DNA of 32,000 nucleotides. Origin: Breznakia blatticola. Lineage in GTDB: Bacteria > Bacillota_I > Bacilli_A > Erysipelotrichales > Erysipelotrichaceae. Positions 5,541 through 27,966 of the stretch are shown piece by piece. The stretch covers positions 1 through 32,000 of the forward strand of contig NZ_SODD01000027.1 of NCBI RefSeq assembly GCF_004365815.1, given 5' to 3'. A model generated the notes under the pieces. The model saw only the letters and a list, made by a program, of their open reading frames with translations, was not told where the DNA came from and made no database searches. Numbering within the stretch: the first letter of the stretch is position 1; each line of letters begins with the position of its first letter. Position numbers and translations under genes: made by a program.

Positions 5541-6763
5541 ATATTCTCCACTTTACTTGTCATTACATTTTTTAAAATTTCTACCATTTGCTTCATTTCA
5601 TCAATACAAAGGTATTCATATTTTCCATGGAAGTTATCTCCACCAGTACCTAAGTTTGGCGTCAATAATCCTTCATTAGATAAACGAGCTCCATCTGTTC
5701 CTCCACGAATTGGTTCATAGTGAACAGGAATCCCCATATCTTGCATCACCATACGGACATCATCCACAATATACATGTGATCTTTAAATAGTTCTGCCAT
5801 ATTGTAGTAACTATCTTCAATATCCACTTTGATGGTGTTTTTACCGTATGTAGCATTCATTGCATCTTGAATTGCGTAAAAATCTTGTTTTTGTGCTTCA
5901 AATTTCTCACGACTGTGATTGCGAATAATATATTCCAATGTTGCATACTCACTTTGTCCATTAAATAAAGTTAAGTGATTGAATCCTTCATAACCTTCGG
6001 TTTTTGCTGGATCTAAATCAAGTGGTAATGCCATATGGAATTCCATCGCTAGTTTACTTGCATTAAGTAGTTTATCTTTTGCACTTCCTGGATGGATGCT
6101 ATTTCCTTGTACATGTACTTTTGCACTTGCCGCATTGAAGTTTTCAAAGCTGATCACATTAATTTCAGCACCATCAATTGTATATGCATAATCTGCATCT
6201 ACTTTTTTTACATCAACATGATCTGCTCCATGTCCAATTTCTTCATCTGGTGTAAAGATAACTTTAATCGTTGGATGCTTAACATCGGGATGTTCTACAT
6301 AATACTGAATCAAATCCATAATAATACTTATCCCAGCTTTATCATCAGCACCAAGTAATGTTGTTCCATCGGTTACTAAAAGATCTTTTCCAATACAACG
6401 TTCCAAACTTGGAAACATTTTTGGATCCATTGTAATTTGTTCTTTCTCGTTTAAAACGATTGTCGAACCATCATAGTTTGTAATCAATCGTGGATGTACA
6501 TGTTTTCCACTCATATCACTACTTGTATCCATATGTGCAATTAAACCAATACAATCCACATCGTGTTCAACATTTTTTTCTAGTGTTGCATACACAACCC
6601 CATATTCACTTGTATACACATCAAGTAATCCAAACGCATTAAGTTGTTCTTCCAAGACCTTGGCTAACTCCAATTGACTTGCAGTTGAAGGAATACTTGT
6701 ACTCATTGGATCAGATGTTGTTTCCATTTTTGCATATGCAATAAAACGATCTACTATATTCAT
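5537..6763 (-). CDS. pepT: Peptidase T (M20B tripeptide aminopeptidase)
   Basis: Motifs HMDT, GADDKAG, FTPDEEIGHG and PIRGGTDG. I moved the start to the ATG at 6763 (MNIVDRF) because GGAAGG lies 7 nt upstream. The ORF-track start at 6778 is a TTG with no spacing to that RBS. Confidence 0.92.
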   Translation of the reverse strand: MNIVDRFIAYAKMETTSDPMSTSIPSTASQLELAKVLEEQLNAFGLLDVYTSEYGVVYATLEKNVEHDVDCIGLIAHMDTSSDMSGKHVHPRLITNYDGSTIVLNEKEQITMDPKMFPSLERCIGKDLLVTDGTTLLGADDKAGISIIMDLIQYYVEHPDVKHPTIKVIFTPDEEIGHGADHVDVKKVDADYAYTIDGAEINVISFENFNAASAKVHVQGNSIHPGSAKDKLLNASKLAMEFHMALPLDLDPAKTEGYEGFNHLTLFNGQSEYATLEYIIRNHSREKFEAQKQDFYAIQDAMNATYGKNTIKVDIEDSYYNMAELFKDHMYIVDDVRMVMQDMGIPVHYEPIRGGTDGARLSNEGLLTPNLGTGGDNFHGKYEYLCIDEMKQMVEILKNVMTSKVENI

Positions 6764-6889
6764 TTTCATACCTTCCAATTCATTTTTAACTACTGTTAAT
6801 TTCCTTATGTAATTCCTTTGTTTTTATACATAAGGACTACGTTTTTATTATACGATAATTTCGATAAAAGTGGTAAAAATGCTTGTAAA

Positions 6890-6898
6890 TGTTATACT
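6890..6898 (+). promoter_or_regulatory. Candidate extended -10 element (TGTTATACT), 6 nt upstream of the ATG at 6905
   Basis: TGnTATACT is seen directly. No Shine-Dalgarno lies between it and the ATG, so a leaderless transcript is possible. No good -35 element. Confidence 0.25.
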
Positions 6899-6904
6899 AA
6901 ATAT

Positions 6905-7612
6905 ATGAAAACATTATTACTAGCTGGAGAAATCACAGATTTCTTAAATGAGTTGTTTAACATCATCGATATTGAAGACATATTTAGCTTGATCTTTTTT
7001 ATCGTTGTAATGGTTGGAATTGTATCGAGTTCAAGCAAGAAAAAGAAACAACAGCAAATGAAATATCAAACGACTTATGTACCAAAGGAAATGAAACGCC
7101 AAAATGTACAAGTGGATTTAACAAGCAAAAGAAAAAGTGCACCTAGAGAAAAAAGTAAAGGTGCTGAAAAGAAAGGGATTTTCGCTCAAATTGCACAGTC
7201 GATTCAAGCTGGAATTGAAGAAGCAAATGCTGAAGCAAACAAGAAAAAAGCGAGCTTATATAAACCAAATCAAAGAGTGCAAGTAGATGTGACAAATCAT
7301 CAAATTTCAGATGAGCAACAAGACTTATATGAAGAAAGAAATCAAGCATATGAAGTACGCAAGAGATTTGAAAAAAACCATGCAAAAGCAGATAAGCAAA
7401 GTATTTTAGATACAACTATGGATGCACACGAACAAAACGTTCTTGATGCAGAAACTGCATACACCGCTGCATATGATTCACGAATAAGTAATGAATATCA
7501 AATGTTTGCTTGGGAACCTATTGTTCCTAAAGAAGCAATGGCTGCTGAGCCCGCAATAGAAGCAGAACCAGCACTATCCGTAGATGAAGAAAAAGGTTGG
7601 ATTATTATTTAA
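6905..7612 (+). CDS. Hypothetical membrane-anchored protein with a long Lys/Glu/Gln/Ala-rich low-complexity tail
   Basis: The only plus-strand ORF that does not shadow another gene. One hydrophobic helix (IFSLIFFIVVMVGIV) is followed by SSSSKKKKQQQ and a charged region. No family recognised. Start chosen at ATG 6905 because the TTG at 6818 has no RBS. Confidence 0.5.
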   Translation: MKTLLLAGEITDFLNELFNIIDIEDIFSLIFFIVVMVGIVSSSSKKKKQQQMKYQTTYVPKEMKRQNVQVDLTSKRKSAPREKSKGAEKKGIFAQIAQSIQAGIEEANAEANKKKASLYKPNQRVQVDVTNHQISDEQQDLYEERNQAYEVRKRFEKNHAKADKQSILDTTMDAHEQNVLDAETAYTAAYDSRISNEYQMFAWEPIVPKEAMAAEPAIEAEPALSVDEEKGWIII

Positions 7613-7626
7613 TAATCCAGCCTTTT
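7591..7626. terminator. Bidirectional hairpin terminator between convergent genes
   Basis: AAAAGGTTGGATTA (7591-7604) pairs with TAATCCAGCCTTTT (7613-7626), giving a 14-bp stem with one G-U. T-rich runs follow on both strands. It sits between the plus-strand gene end (7612) and the EIIA-Glc end (7639). Confidence 0.6.
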
Positions 7627-7638
7627 ATTTTGATGATT

Positions 7639-8127
7639 CTACTTTGTGATTAAACCAACAGTTTCTTGATTTGTGACATCTGTTGTTTCATGAAGTTGAA
7701 TCATAGCATCATCATCCATATTTGTCACAACTACAATGACAGTGGGGTCAATTTGTAATTGTTCCAACATCGCTAAGTCCATTTCGACTAGTGTTGTTGA
7801 TGCCTTAACTTTTTGGTTTTCTTTAATGAATATTTCAAATGGTTTACCGTTTAAATCAACCGTATTGATACCAATGTGTAAAATGACTTCATCGCCATTA
7901 TCTGATAGGATTCCGATTGCGTGTTTCGTTGGAAAAATACTGATAATTTTTCCTGAAACCGGTGAGGTAATGGTTCCATTTTTAGGATACACCGCATATC
8001 CATCTCCCATCATTTTCTGAGAAAACATTGGATCATTGACATCTTCAATATGCATTAACTTTCCAGATGCAGGAGAATACAAAGTCGTCGTATCGCTTAC
8101 ATCTCTTTTTTTAAAAATTCTCATCAT
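7639..8127 (-). CDS. PTS glucose-family EIIA component (EIIA-Glc type)
   Basis: 162 aa with GDGYAV, HAIGI and ILHIGINTV histidine motifs typical of PTS_EIIA_1. RBS GGAGAA lies 8 nt upstream. It overlaps the glcK end by 17 nt. Confidence 0.9.
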   Translation of the reverse strand: MMRIFKKRDVSDTTTLYSPASGKLMHIEDVNDPMFSQKMMGDGYAVYPKNGTITSPVSGKIISIFPTKHAIGILSDNGDEVILHIGINTVDLNGKPFEIFIKENQKVKASTTLVEMDLAMLEQLQIDPTVIVVVTNMDDDAMIQLHETTDVTNQETVGLITK

Positions 8128-9097
8128 ACTTTGCTTCTCCTTGAATTACCATTTGTGCTGCACCTGTTATCCCAGCATCATTACCAAGTGTGGCAAGTTT
8201 TATATCTGTTGATTGTCGAACAAGTGGAAATGCTACTTTTTCAAACACGCTTACAATTTTATGAAGTAGTATATTTCCTGCCTGTGATACGCCACCACCG
8301 ATAATCACGCTTTCTGGGTTTACTATATTGGCAATATTTGCACAAGCGACTCCAAGATCGTACGTAATTACATCTACGCCCTTGCATGCGAGCTTGTCAT
8401 TTTCTTTTACCAGATCAAACACGAGTTTCGCTGTTATTTCTTCATCATTTTCGATTGCTTTTTGAAGCTTTGAATCTTCCATAAATGTTTTACTTTCTAC
8501 ATATGCAACATTCACAATTCCAGTTGCACTTGCCACTGTTTCTAAACAGTTTTCATTACCACATGTACAAGTGAAACCATAATTTAAACTACTGTGTAAG
8601 TGCCCGATTTCTCCTGCACTATTTGCTGTTCCTGTAAGTATAGAATTGTTTATAACAACACCGCCACCGACTCCAGTACCTAGTGTAATAAATACGATAT
8701 TTGATGCATGACTTACACTTGCTTCCCCATACGCTGCACAGTTTGCATCATTGGTAAGATAAAGTGGCACATCTAAATCATATTGTTGGAATGTTTTACG
8801 GATATCCTGTGTTTTTGCCCATCCAAGGTTAAATGCATTTTTTACAGTTCCCTCTTCTTGGCTAACCACTCCAGGTGCACCTATTCCAATCCCTAATAGT
8901 TGTTTACTTGTATAGTTTTTGTCGACTAATGTTGAAAGGATTGACTTACACATATTTGGAACAATTTGTTTTCCTGCTTCGTTAGTGTCTGTTGGAATTG
9001 TCCAAGTTTCTAAACAAGTTCCTTCACTTGTATACATTCCAAACTTCGTAGTTGTTCCACCTAAGTCAATTCCAATTACGATATCTTTTTCATTCAT
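8111..9097 (-). CDS. glcK: ROK-family glucokinase
   Basis: Colinear with recalled Bacillus GlcK: GIDLGGTT, GIGAPG, NLGW, NDANCAAYGE, LGTGVGGG, GEIGH, zinc motif CTCGNENCLE, LGNDAG. Start set at ATG 9097 (MNEKDIVIGIDLGGT), an 8-nt overlap with the upstream gene's stop. Confidence 0.9.
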   Translation of the reverse strand: MNEKDIVIGIDLGGTTTKFGMYTSEGTCLETWTIPTDTNEAGKQIVPNMCKSILSTLVDKNYTSKQLLGIGIGAPGVVSQEEGTVKNAFNLGWAKTQDIRKTFQQYDLDVPLYLTNDANCAAYGEASVSHASNIVFITLGTGVGGGVVINNSILTGTANSAGEIGHLHSSLNYGFTCTCGNENCLETVASATGIVNVAYVESKTFMEDSKLQKAIENDEEITAKLVFDLVKENDKLACKGVDVITYDLGVACANIANIVNPESVIIGGGVSQAGNILLHKIVSVFEKVAFPLVRQSTDIKLATLGNDAGITGAAQMVIQGEAKYDENF

Positions 9098-9737
9098 TGA
9101 ATGCCACAACCTTTCCCACACCATTTTCGTAGGTAATCGTTGTCACACCAGAGTTTTTCAACTCTTGCTTTACAGGTATCGTTTCATCTACCATATGTAC
9201 AATTGTACGAATAACATTACCGTGTGTTACAACCATCAATTTGCTATCATCTTGATGCTTGTTTAAGATCATTTCAAGTCCTTTATTTAGTCGTGATTCT
9301 ACTTCCTTTTGGGTTTCCGCTTCGTTTGCTTGATCCACATCTTTAATTGCTAAAGCTATTTCATCTAAACTCAACGTTGTAAAGATATCACGCACTTCTA
9401 TATTTTTATTTTTTGCGACTTTGCCATACACATAGTCGCAAAAGCTACCATCCAGTGAGCCATAAAAGGTTTCACGGAATTCATACGTAGGGATGATTTT
9501 TGTTTCATCCCTATATGTATTTTCTGCCAAAATAAGATTTGCAGTTCGTATGGTTCTGCCCAGATCGCTTGTATAAATTACATCAAATTTTTCATTTTCG
9601 AGACGTTTGCCTGTCGCAATTGCATCTTCTTCCCCTTTTTGTGTTAAAGGTGCATCAGACCAACCTTGCATTTTTTTGTATTTATTTAAATACGTTTCCC
9701 CGTGCCGAATAAAATAAATCGTTACTTTATTACCCAT
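9090..9737 (-). CDS. Histidine phosphatase family protein (phosphoglycerate-mutase-like; likely a sugar-phosphate phosphatase)
   Basis: 215 aa with N-terminal IYFIRHGETYLN (catalytic RHG), SDLGRT, and a late THGNVIR histidine. Confidence 0.85.
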   Translation of the reverse strand: MGNKVTIYFIRHGETYLNKYKKMQGWSDAPLTQKGEEDAIATGKRLENEKFDVIYTSDLGRTIRTANLILAENTYRDETKIIPTYEFRETFYGSLDGSFCDYVYGKVAKNKNIEVRDIFTTLSLDEIALAIKDVDQANEAETQKEVESRLNKGLEMILNKHQDDSKLMVVTHGNVIRTIVHMVDETIPVKQELKNSGVTTITYENGVGKVVAFNE

Positions 9738-9768
9738 TGTCTACACCATTTCCTTACTATTTGAAACC

Positions 9769-10755
9769 TTATTCACTTAATAATGTTTCCAATTGCTTAA
9801 TTTGACGTTTTGTAAATTCTGTACCACCACAATATAATTCATCTTCATACTCACAAATTAAATATCCATCAAATGACGTTTCTTTAATTGCAGCAATAAT
9901 TTCTGGATATGGGATACTTGCTTCTACACAGTTTTCATCTAGGTAGTGGAATTTACAGTGCATCTCAAAGCAATATGGCATGATACGTTTCATACCTTCT
10001 AATAATGCAGGCAGTTGCTCTTTACTTTTGAATTGTACGAATCCATACATTCCTTGCAACACACCATTGATTGCAGGGTGTGCATTTGCTTCTGTAAGTT
10101 TTGCTCTTGCTTCTTCAATATCCACACCAGCATAGCGCATATCTGCAGCCATTTGTAAGTGTTCTTCTTTTACTCCAGCTTGAAGTGCTTTCATCCATTG
10201 TGGTTTATTTGGTGCAATTGAGAAACATCCAAAGTCAGGAATAAATCCTAAATACTTTGATCCAGTCTTTTCAATCACTGCTAAGTATTCCATCATTTTT
10301 GGTGAAGTTGGTGTTTCTGGATTATGAATTTCGATACCAACATGCACATCATAAAGTTCAGCATATGGCGCCAAACGTTCAAATGCACTTGGTGATAACA
10401 TATATTGTGCACGCATCACCTTACACCCTAATGCATTTGCTGTTTTTAAATCAATGATTGTATCTGCAAGCATTTCATCATCACTTAAATCGCGATCATG
10501 ACGCATTCCACGATCGTTATTTGCTCCATAACTTACTGGACCAATTCCATACGTTTCTTTTAATCTAGTAACCAATCCAAGAAATTCATCACTTACATTT
10601 GGATACGATGGTAACATTTGTGTCCCAACAATTTCATAACCAGTAGCTCCGGCAAGCGCTGCTTGTTTTACACATTCTTCAAAATCATATTCATATCGTG
10701 CATATTCTGTTCCATAACAGAATAAAGTAGCACCTATTTTCATATTTGTATTCAT
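9769..10755 (-). CDS. Xylose-isomerase-like TIM-barrel protein; candidate C-glycoside deglycosidase alpha subunit (DgpC/CarB-like)
   Basis: 328 aa. The metal-site pattern of the AP_endonuc_2/xylose isomerase-like fold is visible: GIEIHNPE, IPDFG, HCKFH, CEYE. It lies immediately downstream of a DUF6379-like small gene and a Gfo/Idh/MocA gene, matching the dgpA-dgpB-dgpC order I recall. The fold call is solid; the specific function is inference. Confidence 0.6.
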   Translation of the reverse strand: MNTNMKIGATLFCYGTEYARYEYDFEECVKQAALAGATGYEIVGTQMLPSYPNVSDEFLGLVTRLKETYGIGPVSYGANNDRGMRHDRDLSDDEMLADTIIDLKTANALGCKVMRAQYMLSPSAFERLAPYAELYDVHVGIEIHNPETPTSPKMMEYLAVIEKTGSKYLGFIPDFGCFSIAPNKPQWMKALQAGVKEEHLQMAADMRYAGVDIEEARAKLTEANAHPAINGVLQGMYGFVQFKSKEQLPALLEGMKRIMPYCFEMHCKFHYLDENCVEASIPYPEIIAAIKETSFDGYLICEYEDELYCGGTEFTKRQIKQLETLLSE

Positions 10756-10763
10756 CTTAGTTT

Positions 10764-11198
10764 CTACTCCTCTACACGTACATCAAGTACATCTCCACTA
10801 TCAAGAGGCATGTACATATGTCCCGGTCCTATATTCATATATGGAACACGTAACATTAATTTCAACTCAATTTTGTGGTTACCTTTTGCCAACCCACCTT
10901 TTTTAATTACATGAATGGTTGCAGGTTCTACTTGACTCCAAAATTCAGTAATTGCATATTTTAATTTGTATACAGGAAGTTCCTTATTACGATATGCAAA
11001 CGTAACTGCTTCTTGATCAACTTTTTCTCCATCGATATACACTTCAAGTAGATCGATATCAGAAAGATAATGACCTCTATAATATCCTAGTTGTACATCA
11101 AAGCTAAATCCATTGCGTTTATTATTGATATACATGTCTTTGAAGGAATCTTTTTTTATAATCTCTTCATTTAATTGCATTCTCATTGCAAAAGCCAT
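10764..11198 (-). CDS. Small DUF6379-like protein; candidate C-glycoside deglycosidase beta subunit (DgpB/CarC-like)
   Basis: 144 aa with good RBS (GGGGGAAAG). The size, the LGYYRGHYLS-type segment and its position between an oxidoreductase and a TIM-barrel gene match my recollection of the CGD beta subunit family. No HMM was run. Confidence 0.55.
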   Translation of the reverse strand: MAFAMRMQLNEEIIKKDSFKDMYINNKRNGFSFDVQLGYYRGHYLSDIDLLEVYIDGEKVDQEAVTFAYRNKELPVYKLKYAITEFWSQVEPATIHVIKKGGLAKGNHKIELKLMLRVPYMNIGPGHMYMPLDSGDVLDVRVEE

Positions 11199-11209
11199 GT
11201 TCTTTCCCC

Positions 11210-12313
11210 CTAAAATTTAATCTCTTTATTTTCAGCTGCTGATTTATAAATTGCATCTAATACTTTTGTAACTGCTAAAGCTTCTTCTGGTTTTACTAGT
11301 GGTTCTGTTCCATTTACAACAGCTTCTAACCATTGTTTTGCATCGATGGTACCTTCTTCACCACCACCGCCACCGAAGTATGCGACACCACCAACAGGTG
11401 ATAATGTTTCTTCCATTAATTGGTTGTTTTTTCCACGGTTATAGATCAATTCATTTTTTCCATAACTCATTCCTGAGTGAATTTCTGCACCAGCTTTTGT
11501 ACCACAAAGTGTAGTTGATGCTTCTCTTGATTCAAGAATATTTAAAGCCCAGCTTGCTTCAAGGTTAATTGTTGCTCCATTTTTCATCTTAATGAATCCC
11601 ATGGCTGAATCTTCAACTTCATATGTTTTTGGATCCCATGGTCCAAATAGGTTTCCTTCTGTTGCTTGTTCTAATCCACCAAGCTTATAAAACACAGATC
11701 CATTTACACTATCTACATCATAGTTATTCATACACCATAAAGTTATATCCAATGCATGTGTTCCAATATCAATTAATGGTCCCCCACCTTGTGCTTCTTT
11801 GTCCATGAATACTCCCCATGTAGGTACTCCTCTACGACGTACTGCATGTGCTTTTCCATAATAGATATCTCCAAGTTCACCATCTGCACATGATGCATGT
11901 AAGTTTTGAACTTCTGGACGGAAACGGTTTTGGTATCCAACCGTAAACTGCATTCCTGATTTCTTCCAAGCTTCTACCATTTTCTCTGCTTCTGTACTGC
12001 TGTGTGACATTGGTTTTTCACAGTACACGTGTTTTTTTGCATCAAATGATGCAATTGCAATCTCACTATGCGACACATTTGGTGTACAAATGTGCACTAC
12101 ATCTACATCAGGGTTTTGCAACACTTCATGATAATCTGTTGTCACTTGTGCGCCTTTGATTCCAAATTCATTTGCGGCTTTTATTGCACGCTCTTCAATT
12201 AGGTCACAAAATGCAACCATTTCACATAAATCTGCATTTTTTTTCAGTGCCGGGAATTGTTTTTGATTAGCAATTCCTCCACATCCAATAATCGCTACTC
12301 TTAACTTTTTCAT
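11210..12313 (-). CDS. Gfo/Idh/MocA-family NAD(P)-dependent oxidoreductase (DgpA-like position; candidate glycoside 3-oxidase)
   Basis: 367 aa. N-terminal Rossmann motif VAIIGCGGIANQ, then the CEKPM motif typical of the family. RBS AAGAGG 7 nt upstream. Confidence 0.85.
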   Translation of the reverse strand: MKKLRVAIIGCGGIANQKQFPALKKNADLCEMVAFCDLIEERAIKAANEFGIKGAQVTTDYHEVLQNPDVDVVHICTPNVSHSEIAIASFDAKKHVYCEKPMSHSSTEAEKMVEAWKKSGMQFTVGYQNRFRPEVQNLHASCADGELGDIYYGKAHAVRRRGVPTWGVFMDKEAQGGGPLIDIGTHALDITLWCMNNYDVDSVNGSVFYKLGGLEQATEGNLFGPWDPKTYEVEDSAMGFIKMKNGATINLEASWALNILESREASTTLCGTKAGAEIHSGMSYGKNELIYNRGKNNQLMEETLSPVGGVAYFGGGGGEEGTIDAKQWLEAVVNGTEPLVKPEEALAVTKVLDAIYKSAAENKEIKF

Positions 12314-12331
12314 ATATTTGACCTCTTCTTT

Positions 12332-13246
12332 CTATATCACAAAGTTTCTTAAATATTTCGTACTAATTGCGACTGCCTTCTTGGCATCATCATATGTTTT
12401 TTCAAACGCCTTATCTTCTACCTCAATACATGTATATCCATTAAATCCAATATCCGTTAATGCAGATACATATTCTGCCCAATCTACATCTCCAAGTCCT
12501 GGTACTTTTGGTGCCATGTATTCAAGTGGCGTTGCCATAACTCCGACATCTTTTAGTTTTTCTTGATACACTTTAATATCTTTATAGTGCACATGATAGA
12601 TGCGATCCTTAAATTCGTATAACGGTGCAATGTAATCAATTTGTTGCCAAATAAAGTGTGATGGATCATAGTTGATTCCTAAACGTTTACTAGGCAATAA
12701 TTCAAATACTTTTCGCCAGTTAGCTGGTGAAGTCATTAAATTTTGACCTCCTGGCCATTCATCATTTGTAAATAACATCGGACAATTTTCAATTGCAATA
12801 TTTACATCATTTGCTTCAGCTACATCTAATATTGGCTGCCAAATACCAACTACATCTTTTAGATTTTCGTCAACGGATTTTTTTGAATCCCGACCGATAA
12901 ATGTTGTTACTGTTTTTACACCATAAGCATTAGCTGCTTTAATTACTTGTTTTAAGTGTTTAGTATAATACTCACGTTTACTTACATCTGGATCCATCGT
13001 ATTTGGATAATATGCAAGTGCTGAGATTTCAACACCCTTTTGCATACAATAATCCAAATTTTCTTGAATCGTTTTCTCACTTAAGTCATATACATCAATG
13101 TGCGAAACTCCTGCATATCGTCTTTCCGCTTTTCCCTTTGGCCAACATGCAACTTCTACACACTCCAATCCGTTCATTGCGACAATATCGATCATTTCTT
13201 TGAAATCACTTTGATCTAAAATCGCACTTACTAATCCTAATTTCAT
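12332..13246 (-). CDS. Sugar phosphate isomerase/epimerase-type TIM-barrel protein (second copy)
   Basis: 304 aa with the metal-site pattern AIENCP, NYDPSHF, HVHYKD, CIEVED. Confidence 0.85.
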   Translation of the reverse strand: MKLGLVSAILDQSDFKEMIDIVAMNGLECVEVACWPKGKAERRYAGVSHIDVYDLSEKTIQENLDYCMQKGVEISALAYYPNTMDPDVSKREYYTKHLKQVIKAANAYGVKTVTTFIGRDSKKSVDENLKDVVGIWQPILDVAEANDVNIAIENCPMLFTNDEWPGGQNLMTSPANWRKVFELLPSKRLGINYDPSHFIWQQIDYIAPLYEFKDRIYHVHYKDIKVYQEKLKDVGVMATPLEYMAPKVPGLGDVDWAEYVSALTDIGFNGYTCIEVEDKAFEKTYDDAKKAVAISTKYLRNFVI

Positions 13247-13255
13247 ACTATCTCC

Positions 13256-14308
13256 TTACTTCTCAAATAAAATTGCTTGATTTGTTTCACTTGATTTCCA
13301 AGCCGCTTCCATAATCGCTAGTACACGACGTACCTCTTCATGTTTTACAAGTTGTTCTTCTTTACCATTTACTACATTTACAAAGTTTTGATAGAAATCT
13401 GTCCAGTCCGTTTCTACAGTTGGTAATTCTTCTGAATATAGTGCCCCTGCAGGTTGTGGTGCAAATTGACGTGTAGGACCAGCTACTGTTTCTGCAATTT
13501 GTGCAGGCAGTTTGTCTAACAATTCACTTGTTCGCCATATTTCTCCATCACAAGCAAATGTATTAATTTTTAAAGTCCCTCGATTTCCTGCCACCAACCA
13601 ACGCGGTTGATAATTCAAGACATAGGTTCCTAGTTCAATATGATATGTAATCCCATTATCGAATTTTAAAAGTATTTTAAAGTAATCATCTACTTCATAA
13701 TTAATGATGCTTTTTAAATCAGCAAATACACTTAGAACTTTTGCGCCTTTCATCATTTGGCATGCTTGGTCGATTAAATGAACTCCCCAATCGTATAGCA
13801 TTCCACCACCGTATTTTTTATATAGGTGCCATTCATGAATTCTTCCATTTGCTGTATGAAGTTTTGATTCAATCGTGAAAATATCACCAATCATATGTTC
13901 TTCATAAACTTTTTTTGCAATTCGAAAATCACGATCCCAACGTCTGTTTTGATGTACCATCATCGTTACGTTGTTGTTTTCTACCGCTTTTACCATTTCG
14001 TCGTATTCTGCAGTATTTAATGCTGCTGGTTTTTCATCAATAATATGTTTTCCAGCATTTGCAGCTTTTATCACCATTTCTTTATGTAAGTGATTTGGAA
14101 CTGTAATCAATACTGTATTTACTTCTGGATTCGCTAATAAATCCTCGACATCTTTGTATGCTGGATATCCCAAATCAATTGCTTCTTGACGCTTTGTATC
14201 ATCAATCTCACATACTGCGACAATTTCTACTCCCTTCACTCGAGTAGCATTTTGTTCGTGCCATTTACCCATGCCACCAAAACCAATGATTCCTAATTTA
14301 ACGTTCAT
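13256..14308 (-). CDS. Gfo/Idh/MocA-family oxidoreductase (second copy)
   Basis: 350 aa with LGIIGFGGMGKWH Rossmann motif and DEKP motif. First gene of the operon, with RBS GAGG upstream. Confidence 0.88.
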   Translation of the reverse strand: MNVKLGIIGFGGMGKWHEQNATRVKGVEIVAVCEIDDTKRQEAIDLGYPAYKDVEDLLANPEVNTVLITVPNHLHKEMVIKAANAGKHIIDEKPAALNTAEYDEMVKAVENNNVTMMVHQNRRWDRDFRIAKKVYEEHMIGDIFTIESKLHTANGRIHEWHLYKKYGGGMLYDWGVHLIDQACQMMKGAKVLSVFADLKSIINYEVDDYFKILLKFDNGITYHIELGTYVLNYQPRWLVAGNRGTLKINTFACDGEIWRTSELLDKLPAQIAETVAGPTRQFAPQPAGALYSEELPTVETDWTDFYQNFVNVVNGKEEQLVKHEEVRRVLAIMEAAWKSSETNQAILFEK

Positions 14309-14335
14309 ATGTTTAACCTCATCTTTTCTATCTTT

Positions 14336-14341
14336 ATTTTA
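14336..14341 (-). promoter_or_regulatory. Candidate -10 box (TAAAAT) of the oxidoreductase/TIM-barrel operon
   Basis: TAAAAT lies about 30 nt upstream of the ATG at 14308. The hexamer at 16-18 nt spacing is a poor -35, consistent with an activator-dependent promoter. Weak evidence. Confidence 0.3.
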
Positions 14342-14412
14342 CGAAGATTGGGACATTTCATCTTCCCGTTTTTTATCGCGAAGTTGATGATTTACATCCT
14401 TGTTTTCCATTG

Positions 14413-14455
14413 AAAATAAAAAAAAGACAAAATTTGTGATACATTTTTTGTCTTT
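14413..14455 (-). terminator. Rho-independent terminator of the AraC-family gene
   Basis: On the minus strand: AAAGACAAAA-(13 nt loop)-TTTTGTCTTT, then TTTTTATTTT. It starts directly at the stop codon (14456). Confidence 0.6.
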
Positions 14456-16774
14456 CTAATTCTTTATTAATCCACAATACATTGTAGATATTTGGTTTGG
14501 TGCTAAATCAATATCAACTGTCAAAATTTCATTGGTAACATGAACCTTTTTAATCATAAGATCTGGACTCGATTTTCTTGCTAGATGATCAATATCCATA
14601 CCAGTTACAAAGTTCACATAATCCCATTTCTTCCACTCATCAATTAGACTTCCGCTCGTTGTACTGATGGTAAACATTCGTACTTCATATTCTCCATTTG
14701 TTACACCTTCTAAGTGAAACCGGAACGATTTTGATTCATTATGGAAGAGCTGATTAATATCATTCACATGGATTTTATCTTTTTTAATATACATGGAAGG
14801 TTCGATATGACAGTAGTTGTTACACAGAATTCCAATATCATATCCTTCATCAATTGTCGCAATATAATTTGCATTTTTACCAATCACTTCACTACGCAAA
14901 TGATGATAAAACTTATATCCGTAAAATGCAGGTTTGTAGATACCTTGTCGATTCAATAGCCCATATGAACCATTGAGTAATTCGTTGGTATTTTTTGCAT
15001 CTATAACCACATCACACATAACATCATAAGCAATCTCATCCACTTCATCAGAAATACTTTGTAGACTTCGCACAACGTATGCTCCTTTAAAGCACGTATC
15101 ATTAACATAGTCTGGATATATTTTCGAGTAATTCCATGAAGTTACATATAGTGGTAAATCTTGGTATTTTGTTTGCTTAAGTTGCTTTTTTACTTCTGCT
15201 ACATCATTTGCTAATTTATCGTTATTTCCAATGTCCTTTAATTTCGTTTGTGAATCAATCGTATAACTATGCATGGTGATGAAATCAAATACTACATTTT
15301 GTTTCTCTAGTTTTTCAAATACATCATTATTCGCATAACCCACTTCAAATCCCACACCACCAATTTTAAAGTTATTACTATAACTTTTTAGCAACATGAA
15401 TATTGCTTTATATAGTTTTGCATAACGCGAGCTATTTAAGTTACTTTGATTACTTAATTCAAAACGATACTTCCCGACATTCACAATCATAAATTGATTG
15501 ATCAAAAACGACATGAATTTACGTAGTACTTCTTTGTATATATCAAGGTATTGTTCAAACATATCTGCATCTTGATCATTTACTTGATACTTTGCAAATG
15601 CAGGTGTTTCAAGTTCAATCATGACAGGAATATTATTTCGAATAAGAAAATTGAAAACGTTTTGGATTTTGTCATAATCTAAAAATACTTCATCATTTTC
15701 GATGGATACAATATTTTCACTAAAGATATCAATGATTCGAAACGATTCAATTCGCAATGATTTCCGCGTTTTCAACAACTGTTCTTGCACTTGAAATTCA
15801 AGCAACTTATGCGCTGGTCCAACATTCATCATTTTGGTAACTTGAAGACGTTGCGGTTTATGTTTTCTTACATCTAGTGTAATCTCCTCATGCATCGTTT
15901 TATTTTTATATTCATAGTTGAACTCTTTTAACTGTTCAACAACTTTCTCATTTTGGTCTATTGCTAGTTCTGCTTTATGTTCTTCTTGATATTGTTGACG
16001 ATATAAAGAAGGTGTTGTTTTGTATGCTTCCTTGAATGATTTATTAAATGCAGTGGTACTAGCAAATCCATGATCCACTGCTATTTGTGTAATATTTTTA
16101 TCCGTTAGTTCTACATCTTCAATCGCTTTCATTAACCTCACTTGATTAATAAAATCAATGAAATTCTTTCCTGTCTCTTGCTTAAAGTATCTAGAGAAAT
16201 AAGAAGAAGACATATAGAAGTGAGAAGCGATATCATCTAAGGATAAGCGTATATTATAGTTTGTATAAATATATTTTAAAATACTTTCCAATCGTGTATC
16301 ATAATCATCACTTTCAAGTTCCATATGATAATTTGTGACTAGCACATCAAGAAATTGAAATCCTAATTCAAAATACTTATAAGGAAACTTCTTATCATTA
16401 CTTGCGAATGTTGATATTAAGTGATGCATTGTATCGCGCAACATGGAATGATTTAGTGCGGTATTTTTTACAGAGTTACAATCAAAGCGAATGGTATTGT
16501 TTTGTAAGGAATCGCGCAATACGTATAATGGAATGACAATTTCACAAACCATTAATTCTTTACTTTGACTATGAATCTCAAAATTTTCTCCATAGTTAAC
16601 AAGTAAGAAATCATCCTTCATCAATGTGAATGATTCTTCTTGCTTATCAATAACTAGTGATCCAAAGACGACATAGAAAAACACAACACTTAATTCATGT
16701 CGTTTGTAGTCATTTACATCTGTTAGAATTTGAAATCCACTTTTTGAATCGAAGCTATTGAATATATTGTACAT
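14456..16774 (-). CDS. AraC-family transcriptional regulator fused to a C-terminal GH39-like (beta-xylosidase-like) domain lacking both catalytic glutamates
   Basis: 772 aa. An N-terminal cupin-like region is followed by an AraC HTH at about aa 160-260 (LSLDDIASHFYMSSSYFSRYFK...GFASTTAFNKSFK). The C-terminal ~470 aa are colinear with recalled Thermoanaerobacterium XynB (GH39): FELSNQSNL vs FEIWNEPNL, KLYK...KIGG vs KLYK...KVGG, DFITMHSYT vs DFVSRHAYT, LYVTSWNYS vs FHITEYNTS, GSYGLLNRQGIYKPAFYGYKF vs [21 protein letters not shown]. Confidence 0.85.
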   Translation of the reverse strand: MYNIFNSFDSKSGFQILTDVNDYKRHELSVVFFYVVFGSLVIDKQEESFTLMKDDFLLVNYGENFEIHSQSKELMVCEIVIPLYVLRDSLQNNTIRFDCNSVKNTALNHSMLRDTMHHLISTFASNDKKFPYKYFELGFQFLDVLVTNYHMELESDDYDTRLESILKYIYTNYNIRLSLDDIASHFYMSSSYFSRYFKQETGKNFIDFINQVRLMKAIEDVELTDKNITQIAVDHGFASTTAFNKSFKEAYKTTPSLYRQQYQEEHKAELAIDQNEKVVEQLKEFNYEYKNKTMHEEITLDVRKHKPQRLQVTKMMNVGPAHKLLEFQVQEQLLKTRKSLRIESFRIIDIFSENIVSIENDEVFLDYDKIQNVFNFLIRNNIPVMIELETPAFAKYQVNDQDADMFEQYLDIYKEVLRKFMSFLINQFMIVNVGKYRFELSNQSNLNSSRYAKLYKAIFMLLKSYSNNFKIGGVGFEVGYANNDVFEKLEKQNVVFDFITMHSYTIDSQTKLKDIGNNDKLANDVAEVKKQLKQTKYQDLPLYVTSWNYSKIYPDYVNDTCFKGAYVVRSLQSISDEVDEIAYDVMCDVVIDAKNTNELLNGSYGLLNRQGIYKPAFYGYKFYHHLRSEVIGKNANYIATIDEGYDIGILCNNYCHIEPSMYIKKDKIHVNDINQLFHNESKSFRFHLEGVTNGEYEVRMFTISTTSGSLIDEWKKWDYVNFVTGMDIDHLARKSSPDLMIKKVHVTNEILTVDIDLAPNQISTMYCGLIKN

Positions 16775-16789
16775 ACTGACCTCTCTTTC

Positions 16790-16798
16790 ATCATACCA
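16790..16798 (-). promoter_or_regulatory. Candidate extended -10 (TGGTATGAT) for the AraC-family gene
   Basis: TGnTATGAT on the minus strand, about 16 nt upstream of the ATG at 16774 and just downstream of the EIIBC terminator. No convincing -35. Confidence 0.3.
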
Positions 16799-16810
16799 AA
16801 TCTAAAATGG

Positions 16811-16835
16811 AAAAGGTGAAAGTTTTTCTTTCACC
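16811..16835 (-). terminator. Rho-independent terminator of the PTS EIIBC gene
   Basis: On the minus strand: GGTGAAAG-aaaaa-CTTTCACC (perfect 8 bp), then TTTTCCATTTT. It lies 14 nt after the stop at 16849. Confidence 0.6.
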
Positions 16836-16848
16836 TGATCGATTTGTA

Positions 16849-18231
16849 TTATACTTTTAATTTCTTTTCGACACTTTCGCTCCAACCAAACATGTACGTT
16901 AAACCAAAAGCTAAGACTAATGAAGCAACTGCTCCTAATAATGCTCCATAGAATCCCATGTCAATTCCTGCTGGATTAATAAGTGCTGGAATACCTAAGA
17001 TTCCTGTACCAAATGTATATCCTTTTCCACCAAGTAGTGAAGCAATTAATCCTCCAAGTGCTCCTCCTGCTAAACCAAAGATAAATGGTTTTCTTGCTGG
17101 AACATTAATACCAAATAATGCTGGTTCTGTAATTCCAAATAATCCAGATACTGCTGAACCTACACAAACTTGTGTAACGGCTTTGTTTTTTGAACGCAAT
17201 CCGAATCCAAGTACTGCTCCAGTTTGTCCCATTGCAGAAGCAAAGAACACGATCGCAATTAATGGACAATATCCCATTGCTGCAAGATTTGCAATAAAGA
17301 TTGATGAGAATGCTTTACTTACTCCAAATAAAACAAGTAGTTGCCAAATTCCACCTACAAGTACTCCAGTGATTAATGGACTAAATGCATACAATGCTTG
17401 AATTGCATCAGTAATGAATGACATTACTGCAGTTAATACAGGCCCAATAATTAAGAATGCAAGTGGTGTTACTACACACAATACAATCATTGGCACAAAA
17501 ATCATCTTTAAAATATCTGGAACGATTTTTCTAGCAAACTTCTCAACGATTGCTGCCAAATATGTTGATAAAATAATTGGGAATACCGTTTTTGAATAAT
17601 TAACTAATGTTAATGGAAGAGCAAACAATGTTAACTGTTGTCCTTCATTTACCGCATTAATGATTTCAGGTGTGATCATTGCACATGCGATAATCATTGC
17701 ATAGAATGGTTTTCCACCGAATTTCTTAGCTGATGTATATGCTAAGAAGATCGGGAAGTAATAGAAGATTGCATTACTAATTGCATATAGCACTAGATAT
17801 GATCCACTCGTTGGATCTAACCATTTCAACATTACAAATAATGATAAGAACCCTTGTAGTGTACCACTTGCTGCTAACACACCAACGATAGGTACAAAGA
17901 TTGCCGAAGCAATATCCGTAATTTTATCAAGCAATGAAGCATTTTTATCTGTCTCTGAAGATACTTCTACTTCACCTCCAGCTTTTGCTGGATATATTTT
18001 AGCTGCTTCTTCATAGTAACTAGATACTGCATTACCAATCACTACTTGCAATTGTCCACCAGCATCGATGATTCCCATTACACCATCAGCTTTTGCAAGT
18101 TCTTCATCATTCACTTTCTTACGATCAACTAAAATAAATCGTAGTCGCGTAAAGCAATGACTAAATGATTGCACATTATCAATACCACCAACTAAATCGA
18201 TTATTGTTTTTACATTTTCTTTTACACTCAT
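16849..18231 (-). CDS. PTS EIIBC component, glucose superfamily, beta-glucoside/sucrose/trehalose branch
   Basis: N-terminal EIIB with phospho-cysteine motif SHCFTRLRF, followed by a multi-helix EIIC. No EIIA domain. Start set at ATG 18231 (MSVKENVKTII) with RBS AGAGGAGAG; the ORF-track start at 18282 is a GTG without an RBS. Confidence 0.9.
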   Translation of the reverse strand: MSVKENVKTIIDLVGGIDNVQSFSHCFTRLRFILVDRKKVNDEELAKADGVMGIIDAGGQLQVVIGNAVSSYYEEAAKIYPAKAGGEVEVSSETDKNASLLDKITDIASAIFVPIVGVLAASGTLQGFLSLFVMLKWLDPTSGSYLVLYAISNAIFYYFPIFLAYTSAKKFGGKPFYAMIIACAMITPEIINAVNEGQQLTLFALPLTLVNYSKTVFPIILSTYLAAIVEKFARKIVPDILKMIFVPMIVLCVVTPLAFLIIGPVLTAVMSFITDAIQALYAFSPLITGVLVGGIWQLLVLFGVSKAFSSIFIANLAAMGYCPLIAIVFFASAMGQTGAVLGFGLRSKNKAVTQVCVGSAVSGLFGITEPALFGINVPARKPFIFGLAGGALGGLIASLLGGKGYTFGTGILGIPALINPAGIDMGFYGALLGAVASLVLAFGLTYMFGWSESVEKKLKV

Positions 18232-18316
18232 ATTATCTCTCCTCTTTGTGAAATCAAGTTTGTCTAATTTGTTTTCTAACACACTGATACTTATGTTGAA
18301 TCAAGACCTCCTTTTG

Positions 18317-18330
18317 TGTAAGCGCATACA
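18317..18330. promoter_or_regulatory. cre-like CcpA operator candidate in the EIIBC leader
   Basis: TGTAAGCGCATACA compared with the recalled cre consensus TGWAANCGNTNWCA: one mismatch in either orientation. It lies about 85 nt upstream of the EIIBC start. Confidence 0.4.
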
Positions 18331-18543
18331 TATCATAACGCAAGAATAGAGTCTTATCTTTCGCTTTTTTTACATGTAATCTACGAAAAAAGAACTTTTG
18401 ATTTTACAAACATAAGAAAATGTAAAAATATATCACACGTTTTTTTACTTAAGTTTAACTGGTATTGAGTTTTCTGGCTAAAAGACTACTAAATTATGAT
18501 GTTTAACCGTAAAACTATTTCTTACGGATGATCTCTTATCTTT

Positions 18544-18572
18544 ACTATACCGATTATTTTATCTCCTCACAA
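18544..18572 (-). promoter_or_regulatory. Candidate sigma-A promoter for the EIIBC gene
   Basis: On the minus strand: TTGTGA-17 nt-TATAGT, immediately downstream of the preceding operon's terminator. If used, the leader is about 300 nt. Confidence 0.3.
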
Positions 18573-18589
18573 TATAATCCTTAATATAA

Positions 18590-18620
18590 AAAATCTACAC
18601 CATCTCTTGGCATAGATTTT
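18590..18620 (-). terminator. Hairpin terminator after the membrane-anchored HAD gene
   Basis: AAAATCTA (18590-18597) pairs with TAGATTTT (18613-18620), with an inner CCA/TGG pairing. A T-run follows on the minus strand. It starts 4 nt after the stop at 18624. Confidence 0.45.
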
Positions 18621-18623
18621 CTT

Positions 18624-19625
18624 TTATATACATTGAATGACAATCAATACAATCCACAACAAACCTAGTGTAATATTTTGAATTACCTTGTTTTTATATA
18701 GTGGATCTTTGTATCGATCACGATACCGATTATAACTTTGTTTAAAAAAGAATAGAGAAATATAAAAATAGCTTACATAAAGTGGAAAACAGTATAATGA
18801 AATACCTAGTCCAATAAGATATAACAAGATCTTCCAATGCATATTCAAAATAGGTTTTTGTCGTTTATCCAAATGTTCATTAATAATGTCTGAGACATCA
18901 TCAACTATTGCACTAGCTATTGACTTCACTTCTTCGTTTCCAATATTCATCGCATATCCGTGAAAGATTTCAATCATTTGTTTATCGTTTCCGCCATCTC
19001 CAACAACAAGAACTTTATCACTCTTAGGTAAATGATGATCCAACAACCATTGTAATGATGTTGCCTTGTTATCGTGTAATCCATTTACATCGATTGTTTC
19101 AATATTTGGATGAAAAGATACTTCACTACCATACGCCTCTCGTAATAATTTCGTGGCTGTTTTCACTTTATCATATGTATCAAAGCGCATATCTATTCCA
19201 TAATAATCATATTTTTCAATTTCATCGAGTTCAATTTCTTTCGTGTAATAATTATAAGTGCTTGCAGCTTCATTATCACTTTCAACTACCATACGCTCAA
19301 ATCCAGCAGATAAAATATAATATACACTACTTCGCACGATTGGATCACATATGATTTTCTTTGCCAAACTTCCTGGAAACTTTGCTTCATAGATAGGCTT
19401 ATACGCACTGTTATACACAACTGAACCATTATTACATACTGCAAAATGAAATGGGATTTTGTATTTGTCTATATCTTTTTTCAACGTCAAAATATCTCGT
19501 CCAGTCACAAAGATGAAGATATTTCCTGCATCTATCCAATTTGTAATTGCATCTACTGTTTTTTTCTTTATTTCACCTTTCGAATTTGTTAGTGTTCCAT
19601 CCACATCACTTGCTAATACTTTCAT
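18624..19625 (-). CDS. Cof-type HAD-IIB phosphatase with a C-terminal membrane anchor (2-3 predicted TM helices)
   Basis: 333 aa with HAD motif I (ASDVDGTLT) and motif IV (VGDGGNDKQM). About aa 264-333 (18627-18836) are strongly hydrophobic: WKILLYLIGLGISLYCFPLYVSYFYISLFFF and ITLGLLWIVLIVIQCI. RBS AAAGGAGG. Confidence 0.8.
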   Translation of the reverse strand: MKVLASDVDGTLTNSKGEIKKKTVDAITNWIDAGNIFIFVTGRDILTLKKDIDKYKIPFHFAVCNNGSVVYNSAYKPIYEAKFPGSLAKKIICDPIVRSSVYYILSAGFERMVVESDNEAASTYNYYTKEIELDEIEKYDYYGIDMRFDTYDKVKTATKLLREAYGSEVSFHPNIETIDVNGLHDNKATSLQWLLDHHLPKSDKVLVVGDGGNDKQMIEIFHGYAMNIGNEEVKSIASAIVDDVSDIINEHLDKRQKPILNMHWKILLYLIGLGISLYCFPLYVSYFYISLFFFKQSYNRYRDRYKDPLYKNKVIQNITLGLLWIVLIVIQCI

Positions 19626-19638
19626 AATCCTCCTTTAG

Positions 19639-19665
19639 AAAAAAGGTAGGTTGACCTACCCTTTT
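19639..19665 (-). terminator. Intra-operon hairpin terminator/attenuator between dhaL and the HAD gene
   Basis: On the minus strand: GGTAGG-tcaa-CCTACC with an A/U extension, followed by TTTTTT. The 5' arm overlaps the dhaL stop codon. The HAD gene's RBS follows immediately. Confidence 0.55.
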
Positions 19666-20273: not shown

Positions 20274-20281
20274 ATTGCCTC

Positions 20282-21292: not shown

Positions 21293-21299
21293 ATAGAAC

Positions 21300-21962: not shown

Positions 21963-21970
21963 AGTTCCTC

Positions 21971-24034: not shown

Positions 24035-24053
24035 CCTTACCCCCTGTTTCTAT

Positions 24054-25697: not shown

Positions 25698-25698
25698 A

Positions 25699-27069: not shown

Positions 27070-27099
27070 AAATTTAAACTCTCCTCTTTTGTTTTCTTA

Positions 27100-27381: not shown

Positions 27382-27389
27382 AGTCCCTC

Positions 27390-27857: not shown

Positions 27858-27918
27858 TTACTCTCCTTTCGCAATTGCTTGCATCTGCGCGCCGATCCAT
27901 GGCAACTTGCTTAATCAC

Positions 27919-27947: not shown

Positions 27948-27966
27948 AGCAATTTCGGGACAATTA

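Follow-up and report, generated by a model that had tools for sequence, protein, structure and literature searches.

Plant C-glycosides such as puerarin, vitexin, isoorientin and mangiferin give rise to bioactive aglycones only after bacterial deglycosylation, and their entry into the cell is the missing step. In the Dorea-related strain PUE from the human gut, DgpA oxidises C3 of the glucosyl group with 3-oxo-glucose accepting the hydride, DgpB/C splits the 3''-oxo-glycoside into the aglycone and a hexose enediolone, and the hydration of the latter back to 3-oxo-glucose has no assigned enzyme; DgpA/B/C also acts in vitro on O-glucosides such as daidzin. A broad 3-keto-glycoside pathway of Bacteroides and Alistipes uses an oxidoreductase, a 1,2-lyase, a hydratase and a reductase (bioRxiv 10.1101/2024.03.25.586180). 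Enterococcus faecalis takes up maltose with MalT, a transporter of the phosphoenolpyruvate-dependent phosphotransferase system (PTS), and employs the maltose-6'-phosphate phosphatase MapP and a maltose phosphorylase, thereby 'connecting two incompatible metabolic routes' (Mokhtari et al. 2013, as cited in PMC11976118). Here we analyse a stretch of 32,000 nucleotides from Breznakia blatticola (contig NZ_SODD01000027.1, positions 1 to 32,000; hereafter the window), in which genes resembling the dgp operon lie next to genes for a Bgl-type PTS permease (EIIBC), a stand-alone EIIA-Glc, a histidine phosphatase and a glucokinase. We interpret the locus as a dgp-type system for plant aryl (C-)glucosides in which the PTS permease and a dedicated phosphatase would replace the usual symporter, and estimate the probability of this interpretation at about 0.7.

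A dgp-type operon in Breznakia blatticola

B. blatticola is a member of the Erysipelotrichaceae that was isolated from a cockroach gut. The genes of interest all lie on the minus strand between 7639 and 18231 (coordinates are window positions unless another locus is named). Domains were called with Pfam and NCBIfam scans, and residues were read off the translations of the open reading frames (ORFs). Eight genes form an operon that runs from 14308 to 7639 with intergenic spacing of −17 to +31 nt and encodes, in order of transcription, a Gfo/Idh/MocA oxidoreductase (oxidoreductase 1), a TIM-barrel protein (TIM barrel 2), a DgpA orthologue, the beta and alpha subunits of a predicted C-glycoside deglycosidase (CGD), a His_Phos_1 phosphatase, a ROK-family glucokinase and EIIA-Glc. 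A preliminary description of this DNA had listed the gene set and its families, and every gene that it named was recovered on the minus strand, at the positions given for it, in the Pfam and NCBIfam scans. This observation is confirmed: the gene set is present, and the phosphotransfer and phosphatase residues are intact. The same description had pointed out that no phospho-glycosidase or competent glycosidase is encoded in the window. We agree, as a Pfam scan of 31 window ORFs (the coding ORFs of 80 aa or more that do not overlap, on the strand that carries the genes, together with 6818-7612 on the plus strand) returned no GH1, GH4 or other glycoside hydrolase (GH) domain except a GH39-like part of a regulator, which has lost its catalytic residues (see below).

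The locus can be assigned to the dgp-type oxidative deglycosylation clusters because its enzymes match DgpA and DgpB/C with the relevant residues intact. The protein encoded at 11210-12313 is 80.6% identical over 366 aa to DgpA of strain PUE, the puerarin 3''-oxidase (7xr9, 684 bits), and retains all of the residues of its glucose pocket (K100, R159, W166, D182, H186, F223 and E264), which points to an NAD-dependent glycoside 3''-oxidoreductase of the Gfo/Idh/MocA family. The DUF6379/DgpB-like beta subunit (10764-11198; PF19906, 118 bits; 9m3a_B, 161 bits; DgpB, 7bvr_B, 93.6 bits) is encoded 8 nt upstream of the gene for the alpha subunit, a DgpC-like TIM barrel and predicted Mn-dependent lyase (9769-10755; 9m3a_A, 403 bits; DgpC, 7bvr_A, 333 bits). 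In the alpha subunit, E142, H144, D174, H266, K268 and E302 correspond to E147, H149, D179, H269, K271 and E305 of AgCGD2. All six metal and catalytic residues are therefore kept, comprising an Mn site of one His, two Glu, one Asp and one Lys together with the catalytic His. The sequence features expected of the Dgp family, namely a DgpA orthologue with its pocket, an alpha subunit with its Mn site and an adjoining DUF6379 beta subunit, are all found. Because both subunits match 9m3a, which is solved and uncharacterised, better than they match DgpC/B of strain PUE, the aglycone specificity may differ.

Two further operon genes may complete the pathway. Oxidoreductase 1, encoded by the first gene (13256-14308; PF01408, PF22725), has as its best solved relative 9m37, the 'P581a DgpA2 and isoorientin complex' (338 bits). 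It may act as another glycoside 3-oxidase or else reduce 3-keto-glucose. TIM barrel 2 (12332-13246) is xylose-isomerase-like (PF01261, 126 bits). A profile of 10 of its orthologues matched a 2-hydroxy-3-keto-glucal hydratase (8ro4) with an E-value of 2e-8 and, better, the uncharacterised 2zds with 2e-18; we propose that it hydrates the 2-hydroxy-3-keto-glucal product.

The monocistronic EIIBC gene (16849-18231) encodes a Bgl-type permease with no fused EIIA (TIGR01995, 461.6 bits over model positions 3-456; PF02378, PF00367). The protein retains the EIIB cysteine, Cys26, in HCFTRLR and the EIIC GITE motif (GITEPALFG). EIIA-Glc, encoded by the last gene of the operon (7639-8127; PF00358, 165 bits; TIGR00830, 140.7 bits, above the cut-off), keeps His69 and His84 with the spacing of E. 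coli IIA-Glc. Intact phosphotransfer residues thus uphold the premise of the preliminary description, namely that a Bgl-type PTS capable of phosphorylation would bring in a 6-phospho-glycoside. We propose that EIIBC imports an aryl (C-)glucoside and phosphorylates it at the 6-O position, with EIIA-Glc as the predicted phosphoryl donor.

The histidine phosphatase (9090-9737; His_Phos_1, PF00300, 120.6 bits) keeps the catalytic set R11, H12, R61, E89 and H172. Its orthologues, 44-73% identical, adjoin the same EIIBC subfamily in 10 of 10 further loci examined, and symporter-linked clusters lack them. From this co-occurrence we propose that it is a glycoside-6-phosphate phosphatase that undoes the phosphorylation by the PTS. 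The ROK-family glucokinase (8111-9097; TIGR00744, 279.8 bits, above the cut-off of 260.35; the start codon with the better ribosome-binding site is the ATG at 9097) is predicted to phosphorylate the free glucose released by the pathway.

Exchange of transporters around a conserved enzyme core

The preliminary description had suggested that genomes be surveyed for recurrence of this gene combination. We seeded such a survey with the DUF6379 protein of the window and collected 51 loci from species-representative genomes, whose gene content was determined by tblastn, clustering and Pfam or NCBIfam scans of cluster representatives. PTS, phosphatase and glucokinase genes do recur with DUF6379/TIM pairs in Bacillota, and because the same gene set recurs in other genomes, the composition of the locus reflects more than chance. 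Among the surveyed loci, three transporter arrangements surround one enzyme core.

The first arrangement has a GPH:cation symporter and is found in Mediterraneibacter gnavus, Butyricicoccus, Faecalicatena, Streptococcus caprae and others. An AraC/GH39-like regulator is present, a ROK kinase often so (for example in loci L001, L007, L019 and L048), and there is no phosphatase. The M. gnavus cluster shares its five enzymes with the window, at 63-85% identity, and carries them with a regulator, a ROK kinase and a GPH:cation symporter (TIGR00792, 313 bits), and has neither a phosphatase nor an EIIA.

The second arrangement combines a Bgl-type EIIBC with EIIA-Glc and a His_Phos_1 phosphatase and occurs in Breznakia (the window and B. 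pachnodae), a Lactovum metagenome-assembled genome (MAG), Enterococcus hulanensis, Enterococcus durans and five metagenomic contigs. The EIIBC proteins have no EIIA and form a subfamily of 47-100% identity, below which the values fall abruptly to the 42% or less of ordinary BglP-type EIIBCA permeases. This version was seen in 10 loci with at least four gene orders. Orthologues of the permease are located within the dgp-like operon itself in L009, L055-L057 and L059-L062; in the Lactovum MAG the EIIBC gene sits between the lyase and phosphatase genes.

The third arrangement has a Lac/Cel-type EIIC and EIIB (with an EIIA in Lactovum) and was found in five Enterococcus species including E. avium, in Lactovum and in a Carnobacteriaceae MAG. 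A Cof-type HAD-IIB gene always precedes the PTS genes (TIGR00099, 174.5 bits, above the cut-off; sugar-phosphatase model NF007806, 119 bits), and an efflux-type DHA2 protein belonging to the major facilitator superfamily (MFS) and a ROK kinase accompany them. As a separate observation, the Enterococcus-type clusters (L036, L042, L047 from E. avium ATCC 14025, L050 and L053, at about 6500-20400, and also L044 and L039) encode two different DUF6379/TIM pairs and a SnoaL-like protein besides the Cof-type HAD, EIIC, EIIB, DHA2 MFS and ROK proteins. The DHA2-family transporter is possibly an exporter of the aglycone.

A phosphatase gene was present in 17 of 17 PTS-linked dgp-like clusters examined, of which 10 were of the Bgl-type/His_Phos_1 version and seven of the Lac-type/HAD version. 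The pairing of PTS and phosphatase therefore appears, from the families involved, to have arisen at least twice from unrelated parts. When the count was limited to DUF6379-seeded loci flanked by 4 kb or more on each side, a phosphatase accompanied all 10 PTS-linked loci and a co-directional phosphatase none of the 19 others (Fisher 5e-8, uncorrected for phylogeny); one of the loci, L048, has a distant, divergently transcribed HAD gene. Searches that started from other genes gave a similar picture. Of four phosphatase homologues at 48-57% identity whose contigs were examined, three lie in dgp-like clusters with EIIBC, EIIA-Glc and ROK genes (one in E. hulanensis) and the fourth in L058, described below, and four members of the EIIBC subfamily picked without reference to the phosphatase all have a His_Phos_1 gene beside them within a dgp-like cluster (one in E. 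durans).

The exchange is clearest in a pair of loci, L060 and L048, that share the gene order TIM-GFO-ROK-AraC-GFO-CGDB-TIM. This is followed by HisPhos-EIIA-EIIBC in L060 and by a symporter in L048. If a symporter that delivers the free glycoside can be swapped for a PTS and a phosphatase, the most economical interpretation is that the phosphatase regenerates this glycoside once group translocation has taken place. Glucokinase genes are retained in PTS-linked and symporter-linked clusters alike, so that free glucose would be the product in both.

The EIIBC/His_Phos_1 pair is also found apart from Dgp enzymes. In Candidatus Galacturonibacter soehngenii (L058, 2260-9666) these two genes and an AraC/GH39-like regulator flank a gene for an 889-residue GH106-like protein. 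This protein is a putative alpha-L-rhamnosidase, and the EIIBC/HisPhos module may here serve another enzyme that acts on non-phosphorylated glycosides. A neighbouring unit of the same locus consists of a classical EIIBCA and a GH1 gene with their own AraC/GH39-like regulator and no phosphatase.

GH106-like, GH3 and GH43 genes lie beside related clusters, which suggests plant flavonoid glycosides as substrates. The DgpA orthologues of Erysipelotrichaceae, Lachnospiraceae, Butyricicoccaceae and Streptococcaceae are 81-86% identical (window versus L001, L007, L012 and others). Across the same families the flanking transporter, the regulator (about 26%) and the gene order differ. This pattern suggests that a conserved enzyme core has spread horizontally, with transport cassettes that are specific to each lineage.

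Transcription units and regulation

Terminator-like hairpins follow the EIIBC gene (16814-16836, minus strand), the regulator gene (about 14450-14410, minus strand) and the EIIA gene (7591-7626, a bidirectional hairpin with a 16-bp stem that closes the operon). The locus therefore comprises three co-directional transcription units rather than one. Where the preliminary description had the genes wired together, this holds for the eight-gene operon; EIIBC and the regulator are separate transcription units.

The regulator (14456-16774) joins an AraC-type helix-turn-helix domain to a GH39-like domain (PF12833, PF00165, PF01229), and among NCBIfam models Staphylococcus AryK comes closest to it (171 bits; cut-off 850). 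In an alignment with XynB, both catalytic glutamates of the GH39-like domain are replaced (E160 by Q and E277 by S). Because both are lost, this domain is better viewed as a sensor derived from a glycosidase than as an enzyme, and the protein is presumed to sense the glycoside and activate transcription. AraC + GH39-like regulators accompany nearly all related clusters and are also found with GH1-linked PTS units. No gene for a PRD antiterminator of the BglG/LicT type adjoins the locus, and a scan of 6500-19800 for riboswitches, ribonucleic antiterminator (RAT) sequences and T-boxes gave no Rfam match at E up to 0.1.

By inspection of the sequence we found a palindrome resembling a catabolite-responsive element (cre), TGTATGCGCTTACA, at 18317-18330 on the minus strand, between the likely promoter and the start codon of EIIBC. 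This 14-mer is a near-perfect palindrome with one mismatch to the usual cre pattern, and an identical 14-mer lies upstream of the B. pachnodae EIIBC gene (in L004, upstream region 2366-2951). We regard the palindrome as a candidate site for CcpA, which suggests catabolite repression of the permease.

Proposed route and alternative explanations

From the gene families, their residues and their co-occurrence we propose the following route. EIIA-Glc and the Bgl-type EIIBC would import the glucoside and phosphorylate its 6-OH, and the histidine phosphatase would convert the glycoside-6-phosphate back to the free glycoside. By homology to the PUE proteins, the DgpA orthologue would then oxidise the glucosyl C3, probably with 3-keto-glucose as hydride acceptor, and the DUF6379/TIM heterocomplex would cut the C-C (or C-O) bond to give the aglycone and 2-hydroxy-3-keto-glucal. 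TIM barrel 2 may hydrate the latter to 3-keto-glucose, which one of the oxidoreductases may reduce to glucose, and the ROK glucokinase would make glucose-6-phosphate. The AraC/GH39-like protein would sense the glycoside and activate transcription.

Several points weigh against this route. The phosphatase scores under every NCBIfam equivalog cut-off, and the best of its solved relatives is the uncharacterised 3r7a. For each glucose the route would consume one phosphoenolpyruvate and one ATP, a high price for a fermenter. The Lactovum cluster (L009) has no glucokinase of its own, and a second EIIBC and a GH1 gene follow it directly. A search with 11-mers, allowing up to one mismatch, found no AraC-type operator shared by the EIIBC and operon promoters in either Breznakia species, only AT-rich chance matches, so we infer the co-regulation of EIIBC and the operon in Breznakia from synteny alone. 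Oxidoreductase 1 has PTS-specific residues in 11 of 350 alignment columns, including R40 and H/K138, which may reflect phylogeny. Finally, the Gfo-type 3-dehydrogenases of Bacteroides and Alistipes tolerate glucose-6-phosphate in their active sites, and action on phospho-glycosides is therefore chemically possible.

The Lactovum locus has a further feature. After its dgp/EIIBC/HisPhos/EIIA operon, the region 14391-19903 encodes a paralogous EIIBC (33% identical), a GH1 protein and a second AraC/GH39-like regulator, placing an oxidative route beside a classical phospho-glucosidase route.

The last two points against the proposed route bear on one of two options in the preliminary description, in which the Gfo/Idh/MocA and lyase proteins act directly on 6-phospho-glycosides in the manner of a split GH4 enzyme. 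They would release the aglycone and glucose-6-phosphate, leaving the phosphatase and glucokinase as accessories. The PTS is competent for phosphorylation, the window has no GH1 or GH4 gene, and GH4 enzymes apply the same oxidation and elimination chemistry to 6-phospho-glucosides. Bacillus subtilis NtdC is a Gfo-family glucose-6-phosphate 3-dehydrogenase, and the basic residues R40 and H/K138 are among the few PTS-specific substitutions of oxidoreductase 1. However, the same enzymes, at 63-85% identity, work elsewhere with a symporter that does not phosphorylate its substrate. In a comparison of PTS-linked with symporter-linked sequences (three of the former, two of them from one genus), none of 367 columns of DgpA discriminated by transporter type, and the two of 328 columns in the alpha subunit and two of 144 in the beta subunit that did so add no basic residue. 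According to the DgpA structure paper, all glucose hydroxyls except C1-OH are specifically recognised. Direct action on phospho-glycosides would also leave the 17 of 17 pairing of PTS and phosphatase and the retention of glucokinase unexplained. We consider this option unlikely. The other option, with the phosphatase acting first and the glucokinase last, fits all of the comparative data, including the transporter swap, the phosphatase in every PTS-linked locus examined and the unchanged sugar pocket of DgpA.

It is similarly unlikely that EIIBC is merely adjacent and imports ordinary beta-glucosides for a phospho-beta-glucosidase encoded elsewhere, while the substrate of the operon enters by another way and the phosphatase is unrelated or detoxifying. 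Such a separation would agree with the separate transcription unit of EIIBC, its own terminator and cre-like site and the lack of a shared operator in our search. A second EIIBC(A) and a GH1 gene lie next door in both L009 and L058, and in B. pachnodae a GH1 fragment lies some 7 kb downstream. However, those GH1-linked neighbouring permeases are different paralogues (32-36% identical), and at least eight other loci, representing four gene orders, have an orthologue of the EIIBC subfamily inside the dgp-like operon, either between the lyase and phosphatase genes or following EIIA. Moreover, the operon ends with the EIIA gene that an EIIA-less EIIBC needs, and the cluster has no other transporter.

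A slightly less probable alternative is that the His_Phos_1 protein resembles SixA and removes phosphate from phosphohistidines of EIIA, EIIB or HPr, so that the PTS would be mainly a regulator, or would act as a facilitator with no net phosphorylation. The protein shares its superfamily with SixA, a weak match to TIGR00249 (22.9 bits) was obtained, and the phosphatase always adjoins PTS genes. This score is far under the cut-off of 74.5, though, and matches to cobC, gpm and PhoE-type models are stronger. The partner in the Lac/Cel version is a Cof-type HAD, from a class of sugar-phosphate phosphatases, which indicates a small-molecule substrate and makes a SixA-like role unlikely. In addition, the HisPhos-EIIA-EIIBC cassette stands in for a complete symporter. 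That the Gfo and TIM-barrel genes serve inositol- or levoglucosan-type catabolism, as weak NCBIfam matches to IolG, IolE and levoglucosan dehydrogenase might suggest, was rejected as highly improbable because these matches are far under their cut-offs, and it conflicts with the 80.6% identity to the biochemically characterised DgpA, with the match of the DUF6379/TIM pair to DgpB/C with intact catalytic residues and with the absence of other iol genes from the window ORFs scanned.

Other genes in the window

A Cof-type HAD gene lies directly upstream of EIIBC (18624-19625, minus strand). We considered it as a second phosphatase of the system and rejected it, as it is not conserved at this place in B. 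pachnodae and a promoter region separates it from EIIBC. Its protein has an unusual C-terminal extension of about 90 residues that is hydrophobic and membrane-spanning in appearance.

A second unusual PTS locus occupies 19656-28664 on the minus strand. Its genes encode GAT-family EIIC/EIIB/EIIA proteins (25699-27857) and a further His_Phos_1 phosphatase (28083-28664), along with two DhaK/DhaL pairs (at 19656-21292 and at 24054-25697), an aldolase of class II (21300-21962) and a regulator of the PRD/EIIA2 type (21971-24034). This second complete PTS permease suggests that the general components EI and HPr are encoded in the genome, and the combination of a PTS with a histidine phosphatase may be a recurring theme in this organism. 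At 300-2665, also on the minus strand, genes for tandem ROK-family kinases (740-1636 and 1772-2665) are followed by one for a DUF3284 protein (300-743); DUF3284 is a domain of CelI in the cellodextrin PTS locus of E. faecalis.

Implications for C-glycoside uptake

This locus and those related to it make one subfamily of PTS permeases, together with a dedicated phosphatase, the candidate C-glycoside importer of some Bacillota. If this is correct, the pathway would include an unreported intermediate, a C-glycoside 6''-phosphate. Strains of Enterococcus and Lactococcus have been reported to C-deglycosylate flavonoids, and the PTS-linked dgp-like clusters of Enterococcus and Lactovum may explain this activity in enterococci. 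The MapP principle would then be broader, with PTS uptake joined to a free-sugar pathway by at least two unrelated phosphatase folds. A phosphatase gene beside a PTS gene could serve as an annotation marker for such a pathway and correct labels such as 'phosphoglycerate mutase', under which the window phosphatase is annotated. It could also guide the engineering of C-glycoside conversion in lactic acid bacteria.

A wider hypothesis, to which we give slightly better than even odds, is that group translocation followed by obligatory dephosphorylation is a general and repeatedly evolved way of importing bulky plant aryl glycosides, including C-glycosides, in Bacilli and some Clostridia. 6''-Phospho-C-glycosides would then be real transient metabolites, and the EIIBC/His_Phos_1 and Lac/Cel EIIC/EIIB plus Cof-type HAD sets would be portable 'PTS-to-free-sugar adaptors' placed before Dgp enzymes or GH106-like rhamnosidases. 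More radically, some of the enzymes may act on the 6-phosphate, for example oxidoreductase 1 with its PTS-specific basic residues.

Comparison with known systems

The transporter family is that of classical Bgl loci, in which a BglF- or BglP-type EIIBCA is paired with a GH1 or GH4 enzyme, and aryl beta-glucoside-like substrates are expected in both cases. The Breznakia locus, however, lacks both a phospho-glucosidase and a BglG/LicT antiterminator and is therefore no classical bgl operon. Its EIIA is split off, its regulator is of the AraC/GH39-like type, and its EIIBC belongs to a subfamily of its own that is at most 42% identical to ordinary BglP-type permeases. The chemistry predicted for the locus resembles that of GH4 6-phospho-glycosidases, in which an NAD-dependent oxidation at C3 is followed by elimination. 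GH4 enzymes are single polypeptides that act on the 6-phosphate ester and hydrolyse O- and S-glycosides. In the Breznakia locus, by contrast, several proteins share the steps, the evidence favours substrates without a phosphate, and cleavage of a C-C bond is possible.

The Bacteroides and Alistipes pathway follows a comparable four-step scheme, with two Gfo oxidoreductases and TIM-barrel lyases annotated 'sugar phosphate isomerase'. Its enzymes, unlike those of the window, are periplasmic with secretion, lipoprotein or twin-arginine signal peptides, and it includes a DUF1080 lyase/hydratase. The two systems are only distantly related (33-64 bits to the BT_2158 and BT_2159 NCBIfam models, against cut-offs of 650-750), and the Bacteroides and Alistipes pathway has no PTS, phosphatase or kinase attached.

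The closest enzymatic counterpart is the dgp operon (dgpA-H) of strain PUE, with which the window shares a DgpA orthologue, a DUF6379/TIM heterocomplex, a second Gfo protein and a second TIM barrel. The predicted chemistry is also shared, namely 3''-oxidation, Mn-dependent beta-elimination and glucose as end product. The two differ in that uptake in Breznakia would proceed through a PTS (EIIBC and EIIA-Glc) and that a histidine phosphatase gene lies in the operon; the closest non-PTS relatives examined, in M. gnavus and Butyricicoccus, have a GPH symporter and no phosphatase.

The closest logical counterpart is the MalT/MapP system. There, a PTS yields a 6-phospho-glycoside, a dedicated phosphatase dephosphorylates it, the next enzyme needs the free glycoside and the released glucose needs a kinase, and the same sequence of steps is predicted here. 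Genetic coupling of a phosphatase to a PTS ahead of a free-glycoside enzyme is found in the 17 of 17 loci and in the L060/L048 swap. In the Breznakia locus, however, the substrate would be an aryl C- or O-glucoside rather than maltose, and cleavage would proceed by oxidative elimination rather than phosphorolysis. MapP, which is of the endonuclease/exonuclease/phosphatase type, also differs in family from the phosphatases described here, which Pfam places in His_Phos_1 in the window and in HAD-IIB in the Enterococcus dgp-like clusters.

The preliminary description had held both of its options to be undescribed for C-glycoside or 3-keto-glycoside pathways. In the literature searched we found no paper tying a PTS or a phosphatase to C-deglycosylation clusters, although the source of PDB entries 9m37-9m3d (strains P581a and W974-1), which was not located, may discuss such clusters. 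Its claim to novelty must be narrowed in one respect, as the logic of bridging by a phosphatase has a precedent in MalT/MapP of E. faecalis. Judged from the genes, the Dgp enzyme core and the MapP-type principle were already known, and what appears to be new in Breznakia and its relatives is the variant that combines them, with a PTS and a phosphatase in front of the Dgp enzymes.

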